A stretch of 64,000 nucleotides of DNA from Longimicrobiales bacterium (GCA_965249725.1 CBDFMQ010000002.1:2240001-2304000), one strand, 5' to 3'; positions 40,362-61,850 are shown, numbered from the stretch's first letter. The notes: generated by a model from the letters alone, not told the origin. Program-made: numbers and translations.

Positions 40362-40573
40362 GGTCGTGGATAAGCTCCTGTGTGGTTGTCTTGCGTGTAT
40401 ACACTGCAACTCATCCGGCGCTTCGGCGGCTGCCGACTCCTTCCTCCGACAGCGTTCTCCCCGTGGGAGGCACGCGAACCCCCCGATAGCGAACCGGCCC
40501 GCAAGGCCGGCGAACCTGAGTGGCATATCCAACGGATATGTCTACGAGGGTTCGATGTAGATCACAGGCGAGA

Positions 40574-40593
40574 GCTTGAGTCAGGCGTTACGT
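40574..40593 (-). repeat. Truncated attC-like half site (family A), array end
   Basis: gcttgagtcaggcgtta identical to the end of the 44727-44868 element. Confidence 0.75.
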
Positions 40594-40683
40594 GACGTGA
40601 GTGCGGTCAAGGTACCGCGTCGGGGGCTCAGAGAACCGCGAGCAATCCGTCCAGAGACTCCGCCAGACTGCAGCAATCGCTTC

Positions 40684-41655
40684 TTAGCCGGCCACCTCCC
40701 CTGCGGCGCGGGAATCAACCTCTATTAGGCCAGGTCGCGGATCTCGACGGACTCGCAACTCGAAGACGTCAGGGCGCGAATAGTGCCCCGCTATGTCCAA
40801 CTGCCAGCGAGGTCCGACAAGTTGATCCGGTTCTATATCCGCGTAGAGAATGCCTTCTTCCCCCTCCAGCGGTCCCGCAACGACCTTGCCGTCTGGATCG
40901 ACGATCAGACTGAGGCCTGGATTCAGCCAGCCCTCCAACTCAGCCAAGTACTCGTCCTTGAACGCCAGGTGATCCGGCACATCGTCTTTGTGGAAGGCCT
41001 GGCACGCCGCGATCACGAAGCAGCGCCCTTCTTTCGCCACGTGCCGCATGGTCGAGATCCACGGCTCTCCGCGGTCCCATGTTGGAGCCACGTGAACCTG
41101 CTCTCCCCACGCCGTGAGTGCGTAGCGAGCCAGCGGCATGTAGTTCTCCCAGCACAGGAGTCCGCTGAGGCGTCCGAATGGGAGATCGAACACTTCGAGG
41201 TCACTGCCTGCGGCCTGCCCCCACACTAGCCGCTCACCAGCGGTCGGGATCAGTTTCCGGTGCTTTCCGAGCACGCGTCCGTCCTGGCCCAGGTAGAGCA
41301 GCGTGTTGTAGAGCGTTGAGTCGCTGGCCTCTGAGTTCCTCTCGTTCACCCCAATCGCAACGGTGACACCGCAATCACCGGCGGCGTCAGCCAAAAGGCT
41401 CACCTCGGGCCCAGGAATGGAAACGGAATTGCCGTGGAGCTGAGCGTAGAGCTCCCGGAGGGGGTGCGTCTTTCCCGGCGGGATGAACCAGACCCACAGT
41501 GGATAACCGGGCACGAACGCCTCTGGGAACGCGACGAGCGTAGCCCCCGCGTTTGCGGCGGCCTCGATCAGTTGGCACGCCTTCGCAATCGTGGCGTCCA
41601 AGTCTAAGAACACAGGGGCGGCTTGGACCGCCGAGATTCTGAAGGGTTCCGACAC
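40684..41655 (-). CDS. Nitrilase (cassette)
   Basis: FPEAFVPGYP, HRKLIPT, CWENYMP (E-K-C triad). Confidence 0.95.
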   Translation of the reverse strand: MSEPFRISAVQAAPVFLDLDATIAKACQLIEAAANAGATLVAFPEAFVPGYPLWVWFIPPGKTHPLRELYAQLHGNSVSIPGPEVSLLADAAGDCGVTVAIGVNERNSEASDSTLYNTLLYLGQDGRVLGKHRKLIPTAGERLVWGQAAGSDLEVFDLPFGRLSGLLCWENYMPLARYALTAWGEQVHVAPTWDRGEPWISTMRHVAKEGRCFVIAACQAFHKDDVPDHLAFKDEYLAELEGWLNPGLSLIVDPDGKVVAGPLEGEEGILYADIEPDQLVGPRWQLDIAGHYSRPDVFELRVRRDPRPGLIEVDSRAAGEVAG

Positions 41656-41718
41656 CGTCCTGGGTCTCCTTCTTCAAGGGTCCGTCCAATCTGTGATTGT
41701 ACTTCGAAAACTCATGTC

Positions 41719-41861
41719 CGATAACGGGCTCACGGACTCAAGACGCGGAGGTGGCGAAGCCACCGGAGTGTCCGCGAAGCGGCCGGCCCGTTGCTCACGT
41801 TAGAGCTTCGCGCTCCAGAGCGACAGCGGACCCAGGGCCATGCGTGAGTCTGGCGTTATCG
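41719..41861 (-). repeat. attC-like element, family A
   Basis: CGATAACGGGCTCACGGACTCA...TGAGTCTGGCGTTATCG. Confidence 0.85.
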
Positions 41862-42004
41862 GGCGTGAGTGCGGTCGCACCATCACGATCGCGCCAGTGC
41901 GATGCACTCCACCTTGCGCCGACGCCGGTTGAGAGTAGCCCTTCCCCCAGGCCCTCTGATCCGTTATACGTACATTTGGATATCACTCATACGTAGGGGG
42001 ACCT

Positions 42005-42235
42005 GTGGCCAAGACCAAACTCACGTTGTCGGTCGATAAGGCTTTGGTGGTGAAGGCGAAGCAGTTCTCGCAGAGGAACGAGACAACGGTCTCGGAGTTG
42101 GTATCACAGTTTCTGGCGTCGTTGGACGATGACCGTGGGATAGCGGCACCCATTACCTCACGCCTTCGTGGCATATTGCCTTCTAGCGTCGAACGCGAGG
42201 GATACCGCGAACATCTCGAGGAGAAGCACGGGTGA
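42005..42235 (+). CDS. DUF6364-like antitoxin
   Basis: KTKLTLSVD...ITSRLRGIL; overlaps PIN gene. Confidence 0.85.
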   Translation: MAKTKLTLSVDKALVVKAKQFSQRNETTVSELVSQFLASLDDDRGIAAPITSRLRGILPSSVEREGYREHLEEKHG

Positions 42236-42648
42236 CGCGGGTGCTACTCGACGTCAACGTGGTGCTCGACGTCTTGGCTGACAGGAAGCCTTTCGCAGAG
42301 GAGGCTACCGCGCTATTCGGCGTGATCGAAGCCGGTGGACTGCACGGCTTCGTGGCGGCCCATACGATCACCACGCTTCACTATCTCCTGGCGAAGCACC
42401 TTGGGAAGGCGAAGACGCGCAGGGTGTTGATGGACCTACTTCAGCTACTCCGAGTGGTGGAGGTAGATGAGGATCGTCTGCGGCATGCGTTGGGACTGAA
42501 TTGGACCGACTTTGAGGATGCCGTGCAGGCAGCCTGCGCGGAGAAGGCGGAGACGGACTATCTCGTAACCCGGGACAAGAAGGGATTCACGCGGTCCGCG
42601 GTGAAGCCGGTAACGCCTGCCGAGTCGTTGGTCCTGATCCAAGAATAG
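42232..42648 (+). CDS. PIN-domain (VapC-like) toxin
   Basis: VLLDVNVVLD, DFEDAVQ, LVTRDKKGF. Confidence 0.9.
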   Translation: MTRVLLDVNVVLDVLADRKPFAEEATALFGVIEAGGLHGFVAAHTITTLHYLLAKHLGKAKTRRVLMDLLQLLRVVEVDEDRLRHALGLNWTDFEDAVQAACAEKAETDYLVTRDKKGFTRSAVKPVTPAESLVLIQE

Positions 42649-42691
42649 ACCGAGCTAGCTGATTAGCGTGAGCACCTCCAACATTCATGTC

Positions 42692-42835
42692 CGATAACGG
42701 GCTCACGGACTCACGACGCGGAGGTGGCGGAGCCACCGGAGTGTCCGCGAAGCGGCCGAGCCGCTGGTCATCGTAAGACCCGTCAGCCTACTCGCGAAAG
42801 CGAGCTGAGGCTCGAGCTTGAGTCCGGCGTTATGT
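42692..42835 (-). repeat. attC-like element, family A
   Basis: CGATAACGGGCTCAC...TGAGTCCGGCGTTATGT. Confidence 0.85.
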
Positions 42836-43014
42836 GGCGTGAGGGCGGTCACGGCGCCACATGAGCTCGAGTGCAATGCACCCCACTTGCTCTGTCAGAG
42901 TTAGGCGGCCTCCGGTTGAGCGAATCAACAGCCGGCCTCGGCTCACAAAGCACCTGTGATTGAGTCCTCCTCGTCCCACACAAGAACCCCCAAGGGTCGT
43001 CGTGGCGCCAACAC

Positions 43015-43764
43015 CTAGCTTATTAGCGAAAGCCCCCAGGACCTCATCGTGTCCGTGGTGCTAAGTCCTGCCGCCGCACCTACCAGTACGATCAGGCCGA
43101 CAAGACCTCCCAGGAGCACCCAAGGTGGTCGCCGCCGTATGATCCAGTCGCTCCCAATGACCGTGACGACCAAGGCGAGCATCGACAGGGGGAACCACAC
43201 GTCCATTGCGTTTTCGACGCCGGACCGCCGCCAGATGCGATCGATCGCCGGAAAGACGATAGTGATGGACGCCAACAGCATGAAATGCTTATGGATTTGA
43301 GGTGTCCGCCGGTAGTACGCCGCACTCCCCACAAAGATGGTGAATACCAACAGGAAGGCGATGTTCACGCAGAGGTCGAGCACGGCCTCCGCCATGAACG
43401 CCAGTGCCCGTTCAGGGCCCACCAGACCAACGAGGCGATGCGGGATGAACAGAAGTGTCGTAACTGCGCTTGCTACAACGACGGGGATGGCCAAAAGGAG
43501 CCCCGCAGCGCCGAGTCTTCGGTGCAGGTCTGGGCGACGCGACGCGATCAACAGCGTCTGCGTGAAGAACACGACAAACCAGGCCGTGAGAACCCCGCCG
43601 TGTACGTGTATGTAGAGGGGTAGCTCGGGTGTCTCGAAGAAGACCTTGAGAAAGAAGCTTGGTGAGAAGCCGACCAGGACGATCACGAGTAAGACACCGG
43701 CAGTCACCACAAAGAATCGATCGTACAGTTGTGCGCCACCCCACGAGCGTGTTCCGTTGCTCAA
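43015..43764 (-). CDS. Multi-TM membrane protein (cassette)
   Basis: About 7 TM helices; HVHG, LHRRLG, HKHFML. Confidence 0.8.
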   Translation of the reverse strand: MSNGTRSWGGAQLYDRFFVVTAGVLLVIVLVGFSPSFFLKVFFETPELPLYIHVHGGVLTAWFVVFFTQTLLIASRRPDLHRRLGAAGLLLAIPVVVASAVTTLLFIPHRLVGLVGPERALAFMAEAVLDLCVNIAFLLVFTIFVGSAAYYRRTPQIHKHFMLLASITIVFPAIDRIWRRSGVENAMDVWFPLSMLALVVTVIGSDWIIRRRPPWVLLGGLVGLIVLVGAAAGLSTTDTMRSWGLSLIS

Positions 43765-43861
43765 CCTTTGGAGTCCTGTGGCTTCGAGACTTCACACCAC
43801 GGTGTCAGAGTTATTAAGACCGTCTAGCTAAGTTAGTGATTGCACTTCAAAAACTCATGTC

Positions 43862-43980
43862 ATATAACGGGCTCACGGACTCACGACGCGGAGCAGAGCC
43901 ACCGGAGTGTCCGCGAAGCGGCCGAGCCGTTGGTCATCGTAAGACCCGAGCTGCCGGAGCGCGACAGCGCGGAGGCCCTG
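43862..43980 (-). repeat. attC-like element, family A, right end lost
   Basis: ATATAACGGGCTCACGGACTCA... with no closing GTTA. Confidence 0.75.
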
Positions 43981-44021
43981 CATCGAGACGGGATCAGGAC
44001 GGCATCGCTAGGCCATCGGTG

Positions 44022-44660
44022 TCAGTCTTCGCCGCCCGGGGTGGGACGGGCCTGGGATACAAACAACCCCGTCACGCCACCATGTACCAACACCGACAGC
44101 GCGACGTACATACCCGTCGGTCCGCTCTGGGTAATCGCGCCGACAGTGACTGAGGTGAGCAGTCCTGCGGCTACGCCGAGGGTGCTGCCAAGGAGCGCGC
44201 GGCCCGACGAAGGTGTGCCGTTGGCACGACGAGCGCCTGCGTGGGCGCCGATGGCGCCTCCGACCCACCCTCCGACTAGGTAGCCCAATGCTCCCCCAAC
44301 ATCGCAGTCATCGTAGCCGCAATCCGAGGTGAGTGACTGACCGATGAGGTAGCCCAGCGCCACGCCCGTTCCGGAGCCAATCACGCCTCCGAGCACCGCA
44401 GTGCTCCGCAAGCGACCTGAGACGGTGTCCTCCTGTGTCACCCGGGGCAGCCGACTCGGTAAGAGCGATTCACGACTACCCGCGCAGTTCGCCGAAGAGC
44501 CGGGCAGAGGTGTCACGAGCAGCGAGCCCGGTTCCGCCGAGCCCACGCGGGGGTTCGCTGGAGCGTTTCGGTCCAGTGAGCCAGTCGCGCATCCGGCTGC
44601 GAGGACGGCCGCCACAAGAGGTGGGAAACGGCAAGTCAGCATAGGCCCTCCAAGAACCAA
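44022..44660 (-). CDS. Hypothetical Gly-rich membrane lipoprotein (cassette)
   Basis: LAAGC lipobox; glycine-zipper-like helices. Confidence 0.6.
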   Translation of the reverse strand: MVLGGPMLTCRFPPLVAAVLAAGCATGSLDRNAPANPRVGSAEPGSLLVTPLPGSSANCAGSRESLLPSRLPRVTQEDTVSGRLRSTAVLGGVIGSGTGVALGYLIGQSLTSDCGYDDCDVGGALGYLVGGWVGGAIGAHAGARRANGTPSSGRALLGSTLGVAAGLLTSVTVGAITQSGPTGMYVALSVLVHGGVTGLFVSQARPTPGGED

Positions 44661-44726
44661 CGCGGTCGCTACGACCGATGGCGCTCGTCTTCAATAACTC
44701 GTGATGCTACTGCAAAAACTCATGTC

Positions 44727-44868
44727 ATGTAACGGGCTCACTGACTCACGACGCGGAGTGCCGAAGGCACGGAGTGTCCGCGAAGCGGCCGGCCTGCTGC
44801 TCACGTTAGAGCTTGTAGCCTACCAGCGACAGCGGCTCCGAGGGCCGTGCTTGAGTCAGGCGTTATAG
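44727..44868 (-). repeat. attC-like element, family A
   Basis: ATGTAACGGGCTCAC...TGAGTCAGGCGTTATAG. Confidence 0.85.
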
Positions 44869-44881
44869 GACGTGAGTGCGG

Positions 44882-45250
44882 TTACTCCTCGCTCGCTGGT
44901 GTAGCAGGCTCTCTCAGACGTGCGCCGAGAAACCCCCCGAGACACGCGGCTATAAGGCCAGAAGCGAGGAAGGGCAAGTCGTCCCCGAAGAAGGATGCGA
45001 ATTGTCCAGAGGAAATCAGGCCGATCGTGACGAGTAGCAAACCGGGGGCAACTACCCACAACCCCCATCTCCAGGCACCACCCGGCCAGAGGATGCCGGG
45101 AAGTAACCCCGCGGCACCGAAAATGGCCGTTGAAATGAGGATCGCTGTGGCGAAAGACGGCGACTCCAATGGCAGGTTGGCTGGCGCGGCTGCCGCGAGG
45201 AGACCGAGGAGGACGGCGATCACGTAGGCGTAGCGTGGCTGCCGGTTCAT
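44882..45250 (-). CDS. Small membrane protein (cassette)
   Basis: Four hydrophobic segments; fills the inter-site space. Confidence 0.7.
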   Translation of the reverse strand: MNRQPRYAYVIAVLLGLLAAAAPANLPLESPSFATAILISTAIFGAAGLLPGILWPGGAWRWGLWVVAPGLLLVTIGLISSGQFASFFGDDLPFLASGLIAACLGGFLGARLREPATPASEE

Positions 45251-45313
45251 TGGGACTTCCTCTGAGATGGTGATCGTCGTCCAACTAGTCGTTTAACTTC
45301 GAAAACTCATGTC

Positions 45314-45457
45314 CGATAACGGGCTCACTGACTCAAGACGCGGAGGTGGCGGAGCCACCGGAGTGTCCGCGAAGCGGCCGGCCCGCTGCTCACGTTAGAG
45401 CTTCCAGCTTCCCCGCGACAGCGGACCCGAGGGCCGTGCGTGAGTCTGGCGTTATGT
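45314..45457 (-). repeat. attC-like element, family A
   Basis: CGATAACGGGCTCAC...TGAGTCTGGCGTTATGT. Confidence 0.85.
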
Positions 45458-45622
45458 GGCGTGCGCTTGGTCTCGTGACGAAAACGCCACCAAAATGGTG
45501 CGTCCGCATGGACAAGACGGTGATGGGATCATTGAGACGAAATCAGTAGTAGGACGTCACAGGATACGATGAGCCGTCCAATCCACCTGGATGTCGGCAA
45601 GGTCCGGTAGAGTGAGGTCCCG

Positions 45623-46135
45623 ATGAAGAAGTGGTTGCGGCGCATCCGAGGTGCGGTCGGAATGGGATTGACGTGGGCGGCTGGGTGGGCACCCATAGGA
45701 GCTGTCGTCGGCCTGGTGCTGGGAGTCGTTATGCCCCCGGTTCTCGGCCTTGGTGCAGTCGTCGCACTCAACGCTAAGGCCTTCGCCGCACTGGGCTTCG
45801 TAGGTGGGACGCTCTTTTCGACGGTCCTCCGGCTAGCAGAAGGTCGTCGCAGGTTCGATGAGTTGGCGCTTCCACGATTCGCCGCCTTGGGCGCGCTGGG
45901 GGGCTTTCTGCTAGGAGGGCTCGCAGTCACGCTGGGGATGTGGGGTTCGGGTTTCCAGGCTTTGGGTGTCGCGATCACCGGCATAGCCACCCTACTGGGC
46001 GCGGGCTCTGCGGCCGGTTCGCTTGCGCTCGCGCGAAAGGCTGACCAACACGAGCTGCTCGAGGCCGGTGCCGACGTGGCGGACGTTGGATTGACGGAGG
46101 AGGAGAGGCACCAATTGCTTGAGGGCCCGGCTTAA
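45623..46135 (+). CDS. Membrane protein (cassette, opposite strand)
   Basis: GAGG RBS; four TM helices. Confidence 0.75.
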   Translation: MKKWLRRIRGAVGMGLTWAAGWAPIGAVVGLVLGVVMPPVLGLGAVVALNAKAFAALGFVGGTLFSTVLRLAEGRRRFDELALPRFAALGALGGFLLGGLAVTLGMWGSGFQALGVAITGIATLLGAGSAAGSLALARKADQHELLEAGADVADVGLTEEERHQLLEGPA

Positions 46136-46231
46136 CTCTCGCATGAACCGAGTTTCTCGATGGCTCGGGCCCGCAAGCGATGCGCGCGCGCCGGACAGCC
46201 ACTCTGAGTGATCTATGCGGGAGCGCATGTC

Positions 46232-46380
46232 ACATAACGGGCTCACGCGCTCCCGGCGCGGAGTGCGCGCCAGCGAACGGAGTGCCCCGAAGGGACGGGC
46301 CCGTTGGTCTCCACGATAGTGTCACAACAGGTAATGCGCGAAGGCGCACCGGAGGGTCCGGCGGGAGAGCGGCGTTATAC
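46232..46380 (-). repeat. attC-like element, family B
   Basis: ACATAACGGGCTCACGCGCTCCCG...CGGGAGAGCGGCGTTATAC. Confidence 0.85.
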
Positions 46381-46476
46381 GGCGTTCCCGCCCGCCCGCC
46401 TCGAGCAGTCACACGTTGGACGACGCGATCAAGATGCCGCACGCGGTTACGGCACCTGAGGGAAAGCAATCGCCTG

Positions 46477-47067
46477 CTAGACCTCTTCCTGGCCCGAATC
46501 TGCGGGAGTCGGCATCACCTTAAGCCGGGGATCCAAGATCTGTGCGGCGATCCAAAGGTACCAGACGAGAGTTGTCAGGCCATTGGCGATCTGTGCGTAA
46601 GAGCTCGACCTCGGTTGTGCGATACCGCTCTTCCAGTTCCGTAGTGTGGAGGGCTCCACTCCGAGCAGTCGAGCGAGATCACGTTGCGTCACGCACAGCG
46701 TCCGCACTGCATCGGACACGGTCTCCGGAGGAGCCAGACCGGATGTGGAGATCTCCTCGTCTTCGAAGAAGAGAGACCACAGCGGGTCGCCTGTGGTCAT
46801 GCGCTTGAAGCGAAGCCCGACGGCCCAGAAGTAAGCGACCTGACGTTGTCGTAGGCAGAGTTCGGCCAGCTTGCGGCGATAGAAACGACCCACGCTTCCG
46901 GACGAAGACCAGTTTCGGACTGTACCGCGCGAAAGCCCAAGGAACTCGGCGAGTCGAACTTGCGGTATGCAGAGGTCTTGGACGAAGCCCCCAGCCGTCA
47001 TCTCCTCGTAGACACGTTCCGCGTAGAACGTGAAATCAAGCAGCCCGAGGGACTCTAGTTCGGTCAT
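46477..47067 (-). CDS. Protein with two XRE-like HTH motifs (cassette)
   Basis: QVRLAEFLGLSRGTVRNW and QRDLARLLGVEPSTLRNW. Confidence 0.7.
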   Translation of the reverse strand: MTELESLGLLDFTFYAERVYEEMTAGGFVQDLCIPQVRLAEFLGLSRGTVRNWSSSGSVGRFYRRKLAELCLRQRQVAYFWAVGLRFKRMTTGDPLWSLFFEDEEISTSGLAPPETVSDAVRTLCVTQRDLARLLGVEPSTLRNWKSGIAQPRSSSYAQIANGLTTLVWYLWIAAQILDPRLKVMPTPADSGQEEV

Positions 47068-47451
47068 GCCTTGGGGTCATCGCCTGTACGTGGCGGACAA
47101 ATCATCATCCAGCCAGGACAGGCAGCTAGGACGGGCGAAATGCGTGGGTTGCCAGGCACCGTGTCCGCGGAAAAGCATGGAACGAAATGGACACATGGCA
47201 ATCTTTTTTTTCAAGAAGGCAAGCAGAATAAGCAACAGCGCTAGCAGCTTGCCAAACGGATCCGGAAGCAGGAGCTCAAGAAGGTCGATGAGCAACGACG
47301 GATCCAGGGCGTGATCCAGGATAAGGGCAGGCATGGCTAATGGACATTATAGCACGCATCAGCTGAGAGACCAAGCCAGAGAACGTGCATCCTGTTACGC
47401 TTCAGGGCCACCAGCTAATCCGCCGACGAACTGACCGCTATCAGGAATGCC

Positions 47452-47469
47452 GTATAACGGATTTTATAC
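47452..47469 (-). repeat. 18-bp mini junction site
   Basis: GTATAAC-GGAT-TTTATAC. Confidence 0.8.
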
Positions 47470-47498
47470 GGCGTCGTTTCGCCACGCCCTCCGGGACG

Positions 47499-47993
47499 CT
47501 AGCAGGGCGTAGCGAGTAGAGTATTGAATTCCGAACGGAATTCGGGCGAAAACGTGCCCCTCGTGGCGCACCAGCGCGGTTGGTATTGCGGGAAGGTCAT
47601 GAAGCCCCGCCACGCCTCCCGTTGGGCGGCGAACTCAGCCTCGTCGTACAGCCCCCGGCGGTACTGGTAGTGCACGTTCTCGAAGTACCGAAACATCGCC
47701 ATGGTGCGGTGGTTGAGCTGGACGGAATCCGTCGGCGTCAACGCTTCCGCCCTGTTCGCTCGCCTCACCAAGTCGGCCAGTTCAGGGTTTGTGGCGCCGT
47801 CACTCATCAGGTCGACAATCTGGACGGCTATCTCGTTCCTTGTCTGAGCCTCCATCATCTCTCGATTCTGTGCGAGTTCGAACGCCACGAGGAGGATCCC
47901 AGCCAACACACCGACCTCTGTAACGATAGTCAGCCATCGATTCAGTCGATCATGCTTCGGTCGTGACTGGTTCATCGCCGCCCTCGGATTCAA
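47499..47993 (-). CDS. Hypothetical protein with N-terminal TM (cassette)
   Basis: GVLAGILLVAFELAQN; YFENVHYQYRRG. Confidence 0.75.
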   Translation of the reverse strand: MNPRAAMNQSRPKHDRLNRWLTIVTEVGVLAGILLVAFELAQNREMMEAQTRNEIAVQIVDLMSDGATNPELADLVRRANRAEALTPTDSVQLNHRTMAMFRYFENVHYQYRRGLYDEAEFAAQREAWRGFMTFPQYQPRWCATRGTFSPEFRSEFNTLLATPC

Positions 47994-48021
47994 CCGTTGG
48001 TTCTTCCTGCCTGCCGATGCC

Positions 48022-48165
48022 GTATAACGGGCTCACGCGCTCCCGACCGGAGCCGCATCGCGGCGTAGGTCCCGAAGGGACGGGCCCGTTGCCCTTCACG
48101 ATAGTGCCTGTCCGTCCATCCCGCGAAGCGGGTCCGAAGGGCCCGGCGGGAGAGCGGCGTTATAC
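48022..48165 (-). repeat. attC-like element, family B variant
   Basis: GTATAACGGGCTCACGCGCTCCCG...CGGGAGAGCGGCGTTATAC. Confidence 0.85.
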
Positions 48166-48230
48166 GATGCGCCGGATCGGTGACTTTAGTCGTCACTCTC
48201 AGTGGCAACCCAACCGGCGCGGGGTTGTAG

Positions 48231-48248
48231 TATGTCGAAATTGACATA
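48231..48248 (+). promoter_or_regulatory. Palindromic operator of TA operon containing TTGACA
   Basis: TATGTC-GAAATT-GACATA just upstream of the toxin ATG. Confidence 0.6.
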
Positions 48249-48257
48249 GTTTCCACC

Positions 48258-48596
48258 ATGAGTCCTGACGACAAGCCGATCGTATGGATTGCCGGTGAGG
48301 TGAAGACGCCGCCTTTCTCCGCAGAGGCGAGGATTGAGGTGGGCATGCTGTTGCGACGACTCCAGAGGGGAGATCGTCTCTCGATGCCGCACTCGCGGCC
48401 GATGACTTCAATTGGACGAGGGTGTCATGAACTCCGGGTTGTGGATGAGGGCGCAACGTGGCGCATCGTGTACTTCGTGGACTCGGATGCAGTGGTGATC
48501 CTCGACGTGTTTTCGAAGAAGACGCGGGCGACACCGAAGCGAGTGATGTCGATCTGTCAGGGACGTTTGAGAGACTACAAAGAGGCTAGGCGGTAA
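48258..48596 (+). CDS. RelE/HigB (Gp49-like) toxin
   Basis: MPHSRPM, CHELRV, WRIVY, FSKKTRATP. Confidence 0.9.
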   Translation: MSPDDKPIVWIAGEVKTPPFSAEARIEVGMLLRRLQRGDRLSMPHSRPMTSIGRGCHELRVVDEGATWRIVYFVDSDAVVILDVFSKKTRATPKRVMSICQGRLRDYKEARR

Positions 48597-48617
48597 GCGC
48601 CCGAGGGAGACGCGAGA

Positions 48618-48950
48618 ATGGACAAGGCCACAAAGAAGAGACTTGAGCGGGCGGGGTGGAGCACCGGTGACGCCAAAGACTTCCTCGAACTCTCAGAGGC
48701 GGAGGCGGCGTTCATCGACATGAAGTTGGCTTTGGCAGAAGACGTCCGAGCTCTGCGCCTAAACAGACACCTGAACCAGACACAGGTAGCGCGAATCCTC
48801 GGATCCAGTCAATCACGGGTCGCGAAGATGGAGGCGGCGGACTCGAGCGTGTCGATCGATCTCCTCATCCGGTCCCTCTTGAAGCTCGGAGCGAAGCGGA
48901 AGGATGTCGCGAAGGCGGTAGCACGGAAGAGGGTTGAGGCAGCAACCTGA
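48618..48950 (+). CDS. XRE-HTH antitoxin (HigA-like)
   Basis: QTQVARILGSSQSRVAKME. Confidence 0.9.
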   Translation: MDKATKKRLERAGWSTGDAKDFLELSEAEAAFIDMKLALAEDVRALRLNRHLNQTQVARILGSSQSRVAKMEAADSSVSIDLLIRSLLKLGAKRKDVAKAVARKRVEAAT

Positions 48951-48980
48951 GCCCTAACGCCAGGTTGAAGTAGGCGTGTC

Positions 48981-48998
48981 GTATAACGGATTTTATGC
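48981..48998 (-). repeat. 18-bp mini junction site
   Basis: GTATAAC-GGAT-TTTATGC. Confidence 0.8.
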
Positions 48999-49021
48999 GA
49001 TGGAGGCCGGACACTACGCCA

Positions 49022-49050
49022 TTGACGTATGTGCGCCAATGGCGCATAGT
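49022..49050 (+). promoter_or_regulatory. Promoter/operator of the next TA operon
   Basis: TTGACG followed by palindrome TGCGCCAATGGCGCA (49032-49046). Confidence 0.6.
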
Positions 49051-49054
49051 TGTG

Positions 49055-49373
49055 ATGGTCATCAAGGAAACCTCCGTGTTCACGAGGCAAGTCGATAAGC
49101 TGCTCGACAAGGAGTCCTTTCGACTCCTTCAGCTTCGGCTCGTGGAGAACCCTGAGGCAGGAGATCTGATCAGAGGCACCTGGAGGGCTCCGCAAGATCC
49201 GTTGGCAGGGCTCGGGCCGCAGTAAGCGCGGGGGAGTCCGAGTGATCTACTATTGGGCCCGCGAGGATGAAGTCGTTCTCCTCCTTCTCATGTATGGGAA
49301 GAACGAGCCGGGCGACCTCTCTCCCCAACAACGGACGATTCTGAAGCGCTTGGTGGAGGAAGAATTCTCATGA
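49055..49373 (+). pseudogene. HigB-2/RelE toxin, frameshifted
   Basis: MVIKETSVF...GDLIRGT, one extra base near 49181, then GGLRKIRW...KRGGVRVIYY. Confidence 0.85.
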
Positions 49374-49657
49374 ATGACGATCTATTCAATGAACTCGTAG
49401 CGAGTGTTGAGGAGGGCGGAGCCATTCTTCGAGGGGAGAAGGAGGCCTCTCGGACTCACGTCGTCGAGGATCCCGACGTCGCCGCGATTCGAGAGGGGTA
49501 CGGTCTCTCTCAGGCGAAGTTCGCCGCTCTCCTCGGAATCAGCGTGAGGACGCTCCAGAACTGGGAGCAAGGACGTCGCCATCCCCATGGACCCGCGCGA
49601 GTGCTACTTCGAGTTGCCGCTCGCCATCCCCGGGCGGTTCTTGAGACTGTTAAGTAG
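49370..49657 (+). CDS. HTH antitoxin (HigA/NadS-like)
   Basis: SQAKFAALLGISVRTLQNWEQGRR. Confidence 0.9.
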   Translation: MNDDLFNELVASVEEGGAILRGEKEASRTHVVEDPDVAAIREGYGLSQAKFAALLGISVRTLQNWEQGRRHPHGPARVLLRVAARHPRAVLETVK

Positions 49658-49691
49658 CGACTCCCACTCGCCACTCGTTCGTACCTCCGTC

Positions 49692-49840
49692 GCATAACGG
49701 GCTCTCGCGCTCCCGGCGCGGGCTGAGCGCCAGCGAACGGAGTGCCCCGAAGGGACGGGCCCGTTGGTCTTCACGATAGTGCCGCACCCGCTAATGCGCG
49801 AAGGCGCGCCGAAGGGTCCGGCGGGAGAGCGGCGTTAGCA
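49692..49840 (-). repeat. attC-like element, family B
   Basis: GCATAACGGGCTCTCGCG...GAGAGCGGCGTTAGCA. Confidence 0.85.
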
Positions 49841-49856
49841 GACGTGCCGGTCCATC

Positions 49857-50657
49857 TCACCACCTGTCGGTGCGGAAGGATGATGCTGGAAGCCCAGCGT
49901 TGTTGAAGAGAGAACCGACAATCCAATTCGTCCAGGCGTATCGGACGGCGGTAGGATTCGGAACAGCTTCACTTGAGACACGCAGGTTTCCACCGCCAAC
50001 GATGACGGCTTCGGCGGGATGGAACACCTTGTCTTCACCCGCCACAGTGAAACTGGTCAACTCGCGGCCGAAACTGGATAGGCCGTCGGGTGCGTGGTCG
50101 AACTCCAGGACGGCTGCACCCTCTTCGACCGTGGAGGACGTGCTCGACGTGCCCTTCGGCGCCATTGACAGCTCTTGGGGCGGTACGCCGCATCGACTTC
50201 GGCCAACGCGTTGGACTTCAGCGCTATCGGGCATGCGTTCATCATCGTTGCTGCGCAGGACGGGTTGGCTGGGGTAGCCTCTGAAGGGCATTTGCATGTT
50301 GGACTGGCCAGACATGAGCCAAACTTCACCGACGACGACATCTTGGAATCGAACGGTCTCGGTCGCGTCACCCGTCCGGGCTTGGACGGAGAGCTCACGA
50401 GGCTCAGCGCTGGCCTCGGGAGAATCGAGGCGGATCATCCATCTCCCGTCGGCCGCGGAGGTAGTCGAGTAGGACTGCCCGGCGAAACGCACGGTGACCT
50501 GGGCGCCCGCAGCGGCCCATCCCCAAACAGGATCTGGAGCGCCGCGCTGCAGAACCATATGGTCGGAGAAGATCGATGGGAGACGAAGTTGAGCGGAAGC
50601 AGGGGCCGGAAACAGAAGCGCGGCAAGGACCGATAGATAGGCTACTCGTCGTGGCAT
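49857..50657 (-). pseudogene. Sialate O-acetylesterase, internally deleted (cassette)
   Basis: FSDHMVLQR, GEVWLMSGQSNM and C-terminal VRYAW...GLPASSFRTD present; central catalytic region appears missing. Confidence 0.8.
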
Positions 50658-50703
50658 AGGTGTGCTCCGTCCTAACTCGCCATTGTGAAGCTCAAAGCAT
50701 GTC

Positions 50704-50852
50704 TGCTAACGGGCTCTCGCGCTCCCGGCGCGGGCTGAGCGCCAGCGAACGGAGTGCCCCGAAGGGACGGGCCCGTTGGTCTTCACGATAGTGCCGCACC
50801 CGCTAATGCGCGAAGGCGCGCCGAAGGGTCCGGCGGGAGAGCGGCGTTACGC
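50704..50852 (-). repeat. attC-like element, family B
   Basis: Internally identical to 49692-49840. Confidence 0.85.
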
Positions 50853-50865
50853 GGAGTCGCGCACC

Positions 50866-51090
50866 CTAGTGGTGGGCCAGGTTCCGCACGTGGAGAATCT
50901 CGCGGGCCTCAATCGGACGCAGATCAGCGCTCGAAAGAGTGACGACCGCCACCGTTCCACCTTCCCCGGAGACGAATTCGACCTCATAGGAGTCGTCGGC
51001 GTGCCGATGCACAATCGCCCCGACGTCGCCCACCTCGAGTCCGGCATCTGGAAGGTCCCGGCGCAGAACGACCGTATCGAGCTCTTTCAT
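50866..51090 (-). CDS. DUF4926 protein
   Basis: MKELDTVVL...GDVGAIVH...YEVEFV. Confidence 0.85.
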   Translation of the reverse strand: MKELDTVVLRRDLPDAGLEVGDVGAIVHRHADDSYEVEFVSGEGGTVAVVTLSSADLRPIEAREILHVRNLAHH

Positions 51091-51094
51091 ACCT

Positions 51095-51172
51095 CTATCT
51101 CCGCGTCGGGTAAGCGGTTACCAGTACAGGGACATCCTCACCCGTGACCATCCATACGGTGCCGAGGGACAC
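51095..51172 (-). pseudogene. DUF6883-like C-terminal remnant
   Basis: GTVWMV...PVLVTAYP immediately upstream of DUF4926. Confidence 0.6.
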
Positions 51173-51296
51173 GAATCAACACGTCCTGCTGTTTCCAGTC
51201 GCTGGCCAAGTCCTCTTCAGAAATCTCGGACGTGAGCGACGAGACTCGCTCTAGCGCCTGAAGCATGTGGGCCAGAAAGGCCCGGTCACGATTCAT
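51171..51296 (-). pseudogene. HEPN/HepT (DUF86) toxin, truncated
   Basis: MNRDRAFLAHMLQALERV...QQDVLIR then similarity breaks. Confidence 0.7.
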
Positions 51297-51573
51297 CGAA
51301 GACGACGACGGCCGAGCCGAGAATGGACTCGCGCATGAAGGGGCTGATACCCGGCTCCGTCAGTAGGTCAACCGGGCGCCTGAAGAATCTGGCCAATTCG
51401 TCTTCGGCGCGGATCAACTCGAAATAGCCGATGCCGCTTCCGAAATCCGCGATCAAATCAACGTCGGAATCGGAATGCTCCTCGCCCTTGGCCGCGGACC
51501 CAAACATCCGAAGCCTGACAATGGCATGGCGACGACAACACTCGGCGAGCCGATCTTGATCAAACTGAACCAT
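51286..51573 (-). CDS. MNT minimal nucleotidyltransferase antitoxin
   Basis: FGSAAKGE..SDSDVDL; RPVDL. Confidence 0.9.
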   Translation of the reverse strand: MVQFDQDRLAECCRRHAIVRLRMFGSAAKGEEHSDSDVDLIADFGSGIGYFELIRAEDELARFFRRPVDLLTEPGISPFMRESILGSAVVVFDES

Positions 51574-51634
51574 GTCGAAAGGTCTCTCCTAACAACCTCC
51601 AACGTCAATCGGCACCCCTCACAAGTGCTTTGTC

Positions 51635-51652
51635 CGATAACGGATTTTATGT
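51635..51652 (-). repeat. 18-bp mini junction site
   Basis: CGATAAC-GGAT-TTTATGT. Confidence 0.8.
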
Positions 51653-51721
51653 GACGCGCCGTTGGTGGACCTCATCAATAGCTACGAAACCCCAAAGGAC
51701 CTAAGGCAAATCGCGGTCTGC

Positions 51722-52537
51722 TCAGTCCCAGGCGACCACCTCGACCTCGGTCGGCTCGTCGAACCCCTTGAGACTGATGGAGCCGAGCGAAGTGAACGAG
51801 AGGCCCTTGCCCATGCACAGATCCCGGACGACTCGGGCGGCCAGTATCTGACCTGGCTCGGCGTGATCGCAGATGCGGGATGTGAGGTTGATTGTCGATC
51901 CGAACAATGCGTCGCCGTCGAGAACGGGCTCTCCTGCCCCGATGCCGATCTTCGCCCGCACGGGGATGCCGTCCGCGCCGTCAGAGGCATCCGCAGTCAG
52001 CTTGGCCTGAATCGTCATGGCGCAAGAGACTGCGGCGAAGGCCGACTCGAAGCTCGTCAGGAATCCGTCGCCCGCGCGGTCAACCTCCCGTCCACCGTGC
52101 TCGACTAAAGCTGCTCTCACCGTGTTCCGATAACGTCGCACGACTTCGAGAGCTGCAGCATCACCCAGTGTTCGAGTGATGTCCGTCGAGCGGACCATGT
52201 CGACGAAGAGGATCGCTCGAAAGGCACTCTCTCGAATCGGCTCCGAGTCGACGCTTTCGGGATCGGCGACCCGACCGAGGAAATGCGCGACAGTGGTTGG
52301 GTCGACCTCGATGACTTGGTGGGGAATCAGCCCGTGAGCTTCTCGATGCATCTCCCGGACGGCCTCCGCTGAGGGAGCCTCGACGAGGCAGAAGGCGGCT
52401 CCCCGAGGCTCGTCGTACCAGTAGGTGAGGGCCTTACAGGAGTGTCTGCCCTGCACCTTGACGTCCTGGTGATGGGCCGCCGCCACTTCCTCTGAGGTCA
52501 CGTCCCGAATGTCGTGTCGATCCATGAATAGCGGCAT
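51722..52537 (-). CDS. DUF4242 domain plus class III nucleotide cyclase (first cassette)
   Basis: MPLFMDRH, FCLVEAPS..HREAHG; ILFVDMVRST, AGDGF, INLTSRIC. Confidence 0.9.
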   Translation of the reverse strand: MPLFMDRHDIRDVTSEEVAAAHHQDVKVQGRHSCKALTYWYDEPRGAAFCLVEAPSAEAVREMHREAHGLIPHQVIEVDPTTVAHFLGRVADPESVDSEPIRESAFRAILFVDMVRSTDITRTLGDAAALEVVRRYRNTVRAALVEHGGREVDRAGDGFLTSFESAFAAVSCAMTIQAKLTADASDGADGIPVRAKIGIGAGEPVLDGDALFGSTINLTSRICDHAEPGQILAARVVRDLCMGKGLSFTSLGSISLKGFDEPTEVEVVAWD

Positions 52538-52631
52538 GCGTACGTTTCCTTCCGTGGGGTCCGGCCCAATAGGACGAATCGAGGCTCGCTCTGCGCTTCA
52601 CCCGCCAATTGTACTACCCGACAGGCGTGTC

Positions 52632-52702
52632 ATGTAACGGGCTCTTCACGAACCATATCAAGTTATCCGCCAAACGGCGACGTCATAACGTCTGACGTCG
52701 CC
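52632..52702 (-). other. Candidate attI-like insertion site
   Basis: ATGTAACGGGCTC at the first cassette boundary with no full element behind it; neighbouring IR GGCGACGTCA/TGACGTCGCC. Confidence 0.55.
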
Positions 52703-52761
52703 AAGACGACCACGAGGCGACGCACGTCGCCGCCCCGGTCCCATAGCGATACGCCTACCCA

Positions 52762-53380
52762 CTACTCCTCCCGCAACAGCCTATCTAGCGGGCTCTCTAC
52801 ATCCGTGGCCTCCCGGCGTGCGACGTGCGTATACAGCACGGTCGTCTTGATCTGACTGTGGCCGAGCAACTTCTGGATGTAGCGAAGGTCGGTTCCGGCC
52901 TCGAGGAGATGGGTGGCGAAGGAGTGCCGGAGCACATGAGGGGTGACGGGTCGGTCGATCCCGGCACGTTTGGCGGCGGCCGCCACTTGCCGTTGTACGG
53001 TCCGGGTCGTCAGGTGACGGTCGCGGCGGTGACCGGCCGGGAAGAGCCAGTCGTGAGGCCGTTCTACCGCAGCGTACTCGCGGAGCACCGCCAGCAGCAC
53101 AGCCGAGAGCATCACGTAGCGGTCCTTGCCTCCCTTCCCGTCGCGTACATGGATCATCATCCGATCGGAGTCGATGTCCGAGACCTTGAGGCGTACGACC
53201 TCACCCACACGGAGACCGCTCGCGTAGAGGACGAACGCGATGGCTATCAGTCCGCGCTTCCAGAAAACGCCTGGTGTGGGCCAGATAGAGTCGCTTCGTG
53301 CCGCGGGCGAACCCGCGAAGCGCCATCTCTTCCTTCATCCGAGAGAGCAACTCCTCGGAGTGAGCCGAGCGCCTAGGGTC
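52762..53380 (-). pseudogene. Tyrosine recombinase with SAM-like N-terminus, internal deletion/frameshift
   Basis: LLSRMKEEMALRGFARGTKRLY in one frame; LYASGLRVGE, GKGGKDR, HVLRHSFATH, LLGH, TTVLYTH in another. Confidence 0.9.
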
Positions 53381-53709
53381 TTTTGGATGGGGCATTCCCA
53401 ACGCTGCACTGGCCAGTCGGGCAACTCCATAGCGCCTCGGGTCCGGGTGGGAAGTCGGGCACCACTCCCCGACCGGCGACTACATCATCAAGGTCGCCGG
53501 CGGAAAGGATCTGATGAGCACTCGCACGCACGGGACGGCGTCCCTGTGGTCGGATAGCGACGCCGATCTTCGTGAGGTCTTGGATGGTGTCGACGCGCTT
53601 CTCGCGGACCTACGCCCGTAGACGAGGACGAAGGCGGACCCCAGCCCGAGGTCGGTATGCGATAGATCGACTAGCGCTGGCCGATCGGGCCCGCCAGTAG
53701 CGATCAGAT

Positions 53710-53898
53710 CGCCGAGCCCCCTCCCCCGCCGTCCAGTTTGCGCCAAGTAACCGGAGTTATTGCGGCCCCACGTGGGGTCCCGAGGCCCCATTCCCACCCC
53801 TAACTCACCGACGCCAAAAAGCCGGAAGCCCAGATCCCTCCTAGACTCCCGGCGAGTGAGCCGGGTGGGTCTCGAACCCACGACCTACGGATTAAAAG
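53710..53898. repeat. ~190-bp direct repeat copy 1 with tRNA-Lys(TTT) 3' fragment (53857-53898, minus)
   Basis: Minus strand CTTTTAATCCGTAGGTCGTGGGTTCGAGACCCACCCGGCTCA; copy 2 at 61660-61850. Confidence 0.85.
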
Positions 53899-61659: not shown

Positions 61660-61850
61660 CCCCCGAGTCCCCTCCCCCACCGACCAGTTCCAGACAGGTA
61701 ACCGGAGGTTTTGGGGCCCCATGTGGGGTCCCGTAGCCCCATTTCCGCCCCTAACTCACCAACACCAAAAAGCCGGAAGCCCAGATCCTTCCTAGACTTC
61801 CGGCGAATGAGCCGGGTGGGTCTCGAACCCACGACCTACGGATTAAAAGT
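61660..61850. repeat. ~190-bp direct repeat copy 2 with tRNA-Lys 3' fragment (61808-61850, minus)
   Basis: Aligns with 53710-53898; the 42-bp tRNA part is identical. Confidence 0.85.

Follow-up and report, generated by a model that had tools for sequence, protein, structure and literature searches.

The 64,000-nucleotide (nt) stretch of DNA analysed here (the window) is C3:2240001-2304000 of a Longimicrobiales genome (G000; phylum Gemmatimonadota; 4.16 Mb, 64% G+C, three contigs) and carries, at window positions 40566-52665, an array of gene units resembling the cassette array of an integron, which ends beside a decayed gene for a tyrosine recombinase that is not the integron integrase IntI. 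The array has 13 gene units, eight complete, two truncated and three mini sites, and one short terminal site. Repeat search, regular expressions, folding and an nhmmer profile agree on these numbers and confirm those given in an earlier sequence-only reading of the window (13 gene segments, eight complete elements of 142-149 bp, two truncated and three mini sites). Complete sites measure 137-143 nt from TAAC to GTTA, or 143-149 nt counting 3-nt flanks, and fall into two subfamilies, A (E1, E2, E4 and E5 in Table 1) and B (E6-E9). The cassettes hold small unrelated genes, including toxin-antitoxin pairs, and five open reading frames (ORFs) without a Pfam family; genes lie on the minus strand in nine of the 13 cassettes, and in cassettes e, h and k a gap of 16-30 nt separates the stop from the next site. 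These calls are based on Pfam and ORF length, with frame analysis from third-position G+C (GC3) separating genes poorly. The 10-mer TAACGGGCTC has 13 copies in the 4.16-Mb genome, ten in this array, two in satellite positions 21-25 kb away (C3:2314286 and 2318481) and one on contig C1; since its copies are confined almost wholly to arrays, the arrangement is not due to chance.

The recombinase gene occupies 52762-53395 on the minus strand and points into the array, as the sequence-only reading had described. It is a pseudogene with a frameshift, in which ~75 residues of the core-binding domain are missing between two parts (alignment A1). The same broken state occurs in contigs of all four public runs (four studies), with 0-1 differing letters, and is therefore not an assembly error. 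The catalytic part keeps the Arg, Lys, His-x-x-Arg, His and Tyr positions and has no IntI insertion (alignment A4). That insertion, ~40 residues in the I2 region near patch III, occurs in three true IntIs, IntI1 among them, and is absent from the window protein and its relatives. The IntI profile TIGR02249 (cut-off 265 bits) matches the window protein only at model positions 121-178 and 231-315; the C-terminal part scores 163.7 bits and an intact homologue (63% identical) from a second genome, G002, scores 206.3 bits, compared with 334-335 bits for a true IntI of G000. The other 20 recombinases scanned, some insertion-less and some linked to IS91-type transposases, score 123-230 bits, all under the cut-off. 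Against Xer profiles, the window fragment reaches 168.5 bits for XerA (NF040815; cut-off 220), 149.6 for XerD (329.6) and 147.1 for XerC (335), while the intact G002 protein scores 219.4 on the XerA profile, within a range of 168-229 across the proteins scored. By sequence, archaeal XerA 4a8e (E 3.6e-44) is the nearest solved structure, followed by Vibrio IntI4 2a3v, which is matched in two stretches. Quick maximum-likelihood trees of 105 and 73 rows were assessed with Shimodaira-Hasegawa-like approximate likelihood-ratio (SH-aLRT) support. One clade holds the eight IntIs, IntI1 among them (support 100 in both trees), and a second holds the IS91-linked integrases (95 and 100). The window protein lies outside both, within a Gemmatimonadota clade of 10-11 sequences (support 95-96) that has array-linked members and in which its nearest relative is 83% identical. 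Judged by its place outside the IntI clade (SH-aLRT 100), its score below the TIGR02249 cut-off and the absent insertion, the window recombinase is not an IntI, which upholds the earlier assignment.

Window-type sites have a conserved secondary structure. An alignment (A3) of 16 such sites from G000, G002 and a third Longimicrobiales genome, G066, read on the minus strand, yields a consensus of 26 pairs that comprises a 5-bp R box (TAACG/CGTTA), an 8-pair L stem and two inner helices. Standard pairs fill 92.8% of cells compared with 84.2% in column shuffles (0 of 500 as high as observed) and 25-46% with slid partners. Compensatory changes on both sides occur in eight pairs, among them G-C to C-G and C-G to A-T when the L stems of the two subfamilies are compared, and the 7-mers around TAAC and GTTA are complementary inside each site, as in attC. 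The minus strand carries a 2-4-nt spacer on the 5' arm and a conserved unpaired GTGAGCC(C) on the 3' arm; this asymmetry has the same polarity in attC sites beside the true IntI of G000 and in arrays of other phyla. Spacer polarity and gene orientation together identify the minus strand as the top strand, and therefore place the array head at its right end. Window-type sites are conserved, branched, attC-like folded hairpins, and the array shows the arrangement by which an integron system is recognised, at least two attC-type sites (AAC...GTT cores, foldable imperfect palindromes) between cassettes. No Rfam family matches anywhere in the window. The truncated sites E0 and E3 are complementary halves of one site.

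Two other site classes complete the array. The mini sites, of 28 nt each, share a core (TAACGGATTTTAT) and act as cassette boundaries; within the G000 genome they occur only in this array, and none was found at the other loci examined. They have 9 nt (TAACGGATT) in common with the end of IntI-type attC and may be collapsed IntI-type attC sites or simple double-strand core sites. The short terminal site lies about 100-125 nt past the recombinase stop and, on the minus strand, ends ...GAGCCCGTTACATGACA, which is the R' end of window-type sites. A GTTA-ending site with a cassette-start motif 100-190 nt past the stop also occurs in G002, G066, G009 and G062, with weak conservation upstream of GTTA; the short terminal site is a candidate attI-like site or first junction.

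Table 1. Features of the cassette array and its adjoining recombinase pseudogene (window coordinates).
Feature	Position	Strand	Evidence
E0, distal truncated site, R''-L'' arm only, far array end	40566..40612	-	
Cassette a, carbon-nitrogen hydrolase (nitrilase-type) gene	40684..41655	-	Pfam CN_hydrolase 167 bits
E1, complete site, subfamily A	41722..41858	-	
Cassette b, DUF6364 + PIN toxin-antitoxin pair	42005..42648	+	Pfam
E2, complete site, subfamily A	42695..42832	-	
Cassette c, 249-aa ORF, no Pfam family	43015..43764	-	
E3, truncated site, centre + R' arm only	43865..43975	-	
Cassette d, 212-aa ORF, no Pfam family	44022..44660	-	
E4, complete site, subfamily A	44730..44866	-	
Cassette e, 122-aa ORF, stop 16 nt from E4	44882..45250	-	
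E5, complete site, subfamily A	45317..45455	-	
Cassette f, 170-aa ORF	45623..46135	+	
E6, complete site, subfamily B	46235..46377	-	
Cassette g, helix-turn-helix (HTH) protein	46477..47067	-	Pfam
Mini site 1, CGTATAA-CGGATT-TTATACG: 7-bp inverted repeat, 6-bp spacer	47443..47470	.	
Cassette h, 164-aa ORF	47499..47993	-	
E7, complete site, subfamily B	48025..48162	-	
Cassette i, Gp49 (HigB-like) + HTH toxin-antitoxin pair	48258..48950	+	Pfam
Mini site 2	48972..48999	.	
Cassette j, HTH (Xre/MqsA-like) gene	49370..49657	+	Pfam
E8, complete site, subfamily B	49695..49837	-	
Cassette k, 266-aa ORF, stop 20 nt from E8	49857..50657	-	
E9, complete site, subfamily B	50707..50849	-	
Cassette l, DUF4926 gene + nucleotidyltransferase (MNT-like) gene	50866..51573	-	Pfam
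Mini site 3	51626..51653	.	
Cassette m, SCO4226-like + adenylate/guanylate cyclase domain protein (fusion)	51722..52537	-	Pfam
Short recombinase-proximal site, candidate attI or first junction	52635..52665	-	
10-bp inverted repeat between recombinase stop and first site	52676..52702	.	
Recombinase pseudogene, C-terminal catalytic part, 190 codons stop to stop	52762..53334	-	PF00589 143.6 bits
Recombinase pseudogene, N-terminal ~56 residues, other frame	53204..53395	-	

Contigs of the public runs (Logan) break inside sites. Half-site joints connect 43975 to 40565 and 43975 to 44839 in four of four runs each and 46271 to 50833 in three of four; the first passes through nine extra letters with 26-33 nt on the shorter side, as from a circle or tandem of cassettes a-c or a reordered array in related strains. 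Such joints were not counted as evidence of excision, given shorter sides of 20-40 nt, 90% likeness and related strains or other arrays as possible sources. The DUF4926 cassette (50840-51406) has a contig depth 2-3 times that of its neighbours in all four runs, and a ~10%-diverged variant is present; the cassette gene therefore exists in other contexts or strains too.

Relatives of the recombinase were sought in 61 genomes, including G000, and tallies over these take in the unpublished G037 and G056, on which no individual claim depends; a scan of the collection with a profile of three intact proteins gave 79 loci. Some recombinase match occurs in every genome (61/61), with close matches (50-74% identity) often on short contigs. 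In G002, the flanks of the intact gene map to 1.35 Mb of G000, a non-syntenic position, and three window-type sites lie downstream of its 3' end, so that the elements were indeed found next to an intact homologue, which the sequence-only reading had named as a check. G066 has six window-type sites downstream of its insertion-less recombinase gene. In G000, G002 and G066 alike, window-type sites thus lie directly downstream of an insertion-less recombinase. The 11-mer TGAGCCCGTTA has 10, 8 and 3 copies in the three genomes that belong to the genus of the window, and 0-2 in each of the 58 remaining relatives. A strict scan for TAAC...GTTA hairpins at 53 insertion-less loci gave five matches in 324 kb upstream versus 34 in 190 kb downstream; corresponding values are two in 228 kb versus three in 224 kb for IS91-linked loci and none in 30 kb versus six in 32 kb for IntI loci. 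The strict scan misses real sites (for example, all three at the G002 locus, L034, which were found with nhmmer only), and a relaxed AAC...GTT scan was dropped as noisy in GC-rich DNA. Downstream sequence of at least 3 kb is available for 17 insertion-less loci, and 13 of these have at least one strict match. Among the other loci of the grade, many end <300 nt past the gene, which fits an assembly break at a repeat and proves nothing. On this comparative evidence, the linkage of recombinase and array is recurrent. Sites headed by insertion-less recombinases in various phyla (L055+L130, L068+L131, L074+L129, L087, L051, L067 and L083) have in common a CGTCG or GTCG that immediately precedes the L' box on its 5' side, as well as 7-9 nt of spacer ahead of GTTA, and the IntI-type attC sites of this order are without the CGTCG/GTCG motif; motif and spacer may together be a site-grammar signature.

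Among ten array-bearing genomes, an IntI over the cut-off is present in four (G002, G065, G066 and G069) and no such match was found in six, namely a chromosome from a metagenome (G061), a Gemmatimonadales chromosome (G062), P. lautus (G063), complete Paenibacillus sp. FA6 (G064) and two Bacillota metagenome-assembled genomes (G067 and G068). In G062, 22 of 23 site-motif matches make up one co-oriented array (reversed-pattern control, 0) whose first site ends 504 nt past the recombinase gene. The 24 matches in G064 are divided among three clusters, of which one is at the recombinase, and 15 of the 26 matches in G063 follow the recombinase. Several G062 cassettes are duplicated: c1 and c2 are 100% identical, as are c4 and c20, which lie 14 kb apart, with 99.9% for c3 and c15 and 99.2% for c5 and c13. 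Duplicated units run exactly from TTA... to ...G and have different neighbours, and the gene-proximal copy abuts the site AACTGAAC|GTTATCTGG, ~125 nt past the stop. These cassette-exact duplications are, as indirect evidence, the footprint expected of cassette-wise recombination at G|TTA with insertion at attI, and they occur in a chromosome whose sole IntI-like gene lacks the insertion.

We consider it probable that the region is a decayed member of a parallel, integron-like cassette-capture system. The array would be sedentary, with the minus strand of the window as top strand and, at its head, a co-oriented, insertion-less IntI/Xer-like tyrosine recombinase, followed by a putative attI-like site 100-125 nt past the stop and then by the 13 cassettes. 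Most cassettes end in a 137-143-nt site with R box, covarying L stem, unpaired GTGAGCC 3' spacer and two inner helices. By analogy with integrons, strand exchange at G|TTA would follow binding of the recombinase to the folded single strand of a site, and cassettes would leave as circles and insert at the attI-like site, as they do with IntI. The conserved unpaired 3' spacer would replace the extrahelical bases that are read by the I2 helix of IntI. With the recombinase inactivated, cassette movement in this array has probably stopped, unless the true IntI of G000 cross-acts. Of the parallel platform proposed in the sequence-only reading, the association of arrays with an insertion-less family and the distinct sites are supported; a single recombinase clade is not proven, and the insertion-less recombinases form a grade. 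The broader claim, that a widespread I2-less family of integron integrases operates cassette arrays and a site grammar of its own, in which a short 5' spacer is combined with a long, conserved, unpaired 3' spacer and in many cases with a branched centre, seems to us evenly poised between right and wrong.

Several observations weigh against this interpretation. The gene is a pseudogene here, so that nothing in the window is active through it, and we infer recombination by the family from comparison. Outside the clades described above, the insertion-less sequences form a poorly resolved grade with weak deep branches. A family without the I2 helix would need another way to read the hairpin. No strict match was found at four of the 17 loci with adequate downstream sequence, L034 with its nhmmer sites being one of the four. 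Window-type sites also occur away from any recombinase (C3:2314279-2318628, C1:101196-101269 and G002 C8:57-64 kb), with further site clusters elsewhere in G064 and G063. A 3' fragment of a lysine transfer RNA (tRNA-Lys) gene lies ~460 nt upstream of the recombinase gene, which is the usual setting of an island integrase. Finally, G000 has a true IntI, so action in trans is possible, and IntIs accept diverse attC sites.

The last point leads to the strongest alternative, which we judge unlikely: the array would be a cluster of attC sites lacking integron integrases (CALIN), built and serviced in trans by the true IntI, with the neighbouring recombinase unrelated to it. The true IntI gene (C3:1028977-1029906) lies 1.26 Mb from the array and is co-oriented with at least four attC sites of 90-94 nt downstream of its 3' end (C3:1022199-1029906, L009); the true IntI of G069 has the same co-oriented arrangement and the same 90-110-nt attC type. 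Orientation towards the array therefore does not discriminate in this order, and the direction of the window gene, which the sequence-only reading took as a contrast with IntI, holds as a description and fails as a distinction. A whole-genome scan revealed further integrase-less clusters of IntI-type attC in G000 (C3 at 824-829, 972, 1530-1533 and 2820 kb; C2 at 304 kb), and those clusters require action in trans. A true IntI is present in each of the three Longimicrobiales genomes with window-type arrays, and the mini sites resemble the end of IntI-type attC, as noted above. Nevertheless, no window-type sites were found near the true IntI in G000, G002 or G066, where window-type sites follow the insertion-less recombinase; the true IntI of G000, like that of G069, is accompanied by the other attC type. 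A routine linkage of such arrays to a true intI, which would have contradicted the sequence-only reading, is thus not observed. Related head-linked arrays in the six genomes without IntI over the cut-off, with exact cassette duplication in one, also argue against service by IntI.

Some further features of the G000 sites and of their surroundings are recorded here. A tRNA-Pro gene lies ~600 nt upstream of the true intI. A 173-amino-acid membrane-protein cassette of the window-type array in G002 (L034 5826-6383) has 81% DNA identity to C3:973598-974142 of G000, a gene 1.6 kb from an IntI-type attC, which hints that cassette genes may be exchanged between the two site types. A third site type is represented in G000 by six 147-150-nt TAACGTTCAGGGCC...GTTA elements in a row (C3:2827911-2834180; L136 1911-8180). 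Some 3 kb away lies an N-terminal fragment of another insertion-less recombinase (C3:2837322-2837951; L136 11322-11951), on the strand opposite to that predicted by array polarity; its Pfam match to the HARP domain is sub-threshold (19.1 versus 25 bits).

A second alternative, to which we assign a low probability, sees in the recombinase the remnant integrase of a mobile element that landed beside the array: an IS91-type element whose accessory integrase targets attC, or an island integrated at tRNA-Lys. An IS91-type transposase (Y2_Tnp + Zn_Tnp_IS91) lies directly 3' of the integrase in 42 of the 79 related loci, and contig C1 of G011 carries seven identical 2.5-kb units in which an insertion-less integrase is followed by an IS91-type transposase (e.g., L031 5982-8502). 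One unit, beside attC sites, ends ...CGTTAGGC; a unit ending ...AATCGTTAGGC is followed by a cassette and an IntI-type attC, which suggests that G011-type elements may insert at attC sites. The decay of the window gene would suit a leftover integrase, and the tRNA-Lys repeats nearby have a tandem-island pattern. Repeats of 187 nt, comprising the 3' part of tRNA-Lys and ~145 nt of flank, occur at 53712-53898 and 61663-61849 of the window and again at L008 15570-15751 (C3:2319570-2319751), 26 kb away, where the third copy alone has the whole tRNA-Lys(ttt) (L008 15679-15751). ARAGORN detected no tRNA in the window, and the tRNA-like sequence at 53856-53898 is a 3' fragment only. This looks like two islands (~8 kb and ~18 kb) in tandem at tRNA-Lys beside the array head, with the 18-kb island holding the satellite sites. 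The mobile-element explanation is nonetheless opposed by the position of the window protein outside the IS91-linked clade (support 95-100), and by the lack of any IS91 transposase trace in G000 in a tblastn search with the G011 transposase; the array starts ~100 nt past the recombinase stop. The same recombinase-array layout occurs in G002 and G066 with no transposase or tRNA within 10 kb, a tRNA is present at only one of 21 other insertion-less loci examined, and the strict scan places sites 3' of the gene only, rather than on either side of it.

It is scarcely credible that the repeats are clustered intergenic structured repeats (of repetitive extragenic palindromic type, terminators or small RNAs) rather than recombination sites: they do fold stably, covariation cannot separate DNA from RNA structure and the absence of Rfam matches excludes nothing by name, but the motif is confined to few arrays (12 of 13 genome copies in two neighbouring clusters), the sites delimit single-gene units that are mixed in content, with toxin-antitoxin pairs among them, and carry attC AAC/GTT cores with complementary 7-mers, and the identical units of G062 are bounded exactly at G|TTA.

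The preferred interpretation, a parallel cassette-capture system, can be compared with systems already described. Integrons are defined and searched for by an IntI-specific domain. Sedentary integrons with a co-oriented intI, as described for Spirochaetota (10.1101/2022.02.06.479319) and as in G000 and G069, are alike in having a head recombinase that points into the array and an attI-like site after the gene (here a candidate), as well as single-gene cassettes that include toxin-antitoxin pairs. They are also alike in their imperfect palindromes with AAC/GTT cores, complementary 7-mers, an L stem and a longer unpaired 3' spacer, and in sites that resemble one another more inside an array than across arrays. 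Unlike in those integrons, the recombinase here has no ~40-residue I2 insertion, scores below the TIGR02249 cut-off, falls outside the IntI clade and is dead in the window. Compared with local IntI attC (90-110 nt), the sites here are longer (137-180 nt) and branched, with a conserved 7-9-nt unpaired 3' spacer (GTGAGCC). Tools that require the intI_Cterm profile would presumably class the array as a CALIN in the sense of Cury et al. (2016; PMC4889954). In contrast to the recombinases noted beside attC in that study, members of the present family are found repeatedly at the heads of arrays, which have up to 22 sites, and also in IntI-free genomes. In IS91 elements with an upstream integrase, as in G011, the integrase has 54% identity to the C-terminal domain of the window protein and likewise no IntI insertion; such integrases group in a clade apart, and a transposase with Y2 and Zn-ribbon domains follows in every case, whereas no trace of a transposase exists in the window, and the clade of its recombinase is found at array heads. 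XerA, XerC and XerD are similar in domain layout and length, and the XerA score is near the cut-off, but the window protein lies at no dif-type site and outside any housekeeping context, and the XerC and XerD cut-offs are widely missed. Other Xer-like genes in G000 lie at C3:421954-422619 and 888424-889221.

Published surveys offer points of contact. PMC4889954 reports 50 tyrosine recombinases that lie beside attC sites and have no IntI domain; for 29 of them, an IntI is present elsewhere in the genome. Such neighbours were judged not to be IntI, and four of them were intermediate between IntI and Xer, each with <3 attC. For Firmicutes, the IntegronFinder 2.0 study (10.1101/2022.02.28.482270) lists only a handful of CALINs and a single complete integron. 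The additional domain is present in archaeal IntIs according to the archaeal integron study (10.1101/2022.02.06.479319), and acquisition of the I2 helix moved IntI to single-strand recombination according to PMC7790495. We found no description of an insertion-less family heading cassette arrays in the literature, supplements not covered.

The question is directly testable, and cultured hosts of intact systems are available in Paenibacillus sp. FA6 and P. lautus NRS-1281. If the interpretation is correct, recombination of single-strand hairpins would not depend on the I2 helix, and the accepted requirement for this helix would be wrong or incomplete. Current tools would under-count gene-capture platforms, and many CALINs would be complete systems of a second kind. 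In Longimicrobiales, such a system would share its genome with working classical IntI integrons. Paenibacillus and other lineages from which integrons are said to be absent would have it as their sole integron-type system, and many integrase-less arrays, as well as some phyla reported to be without integrons, would deserve re-examination.

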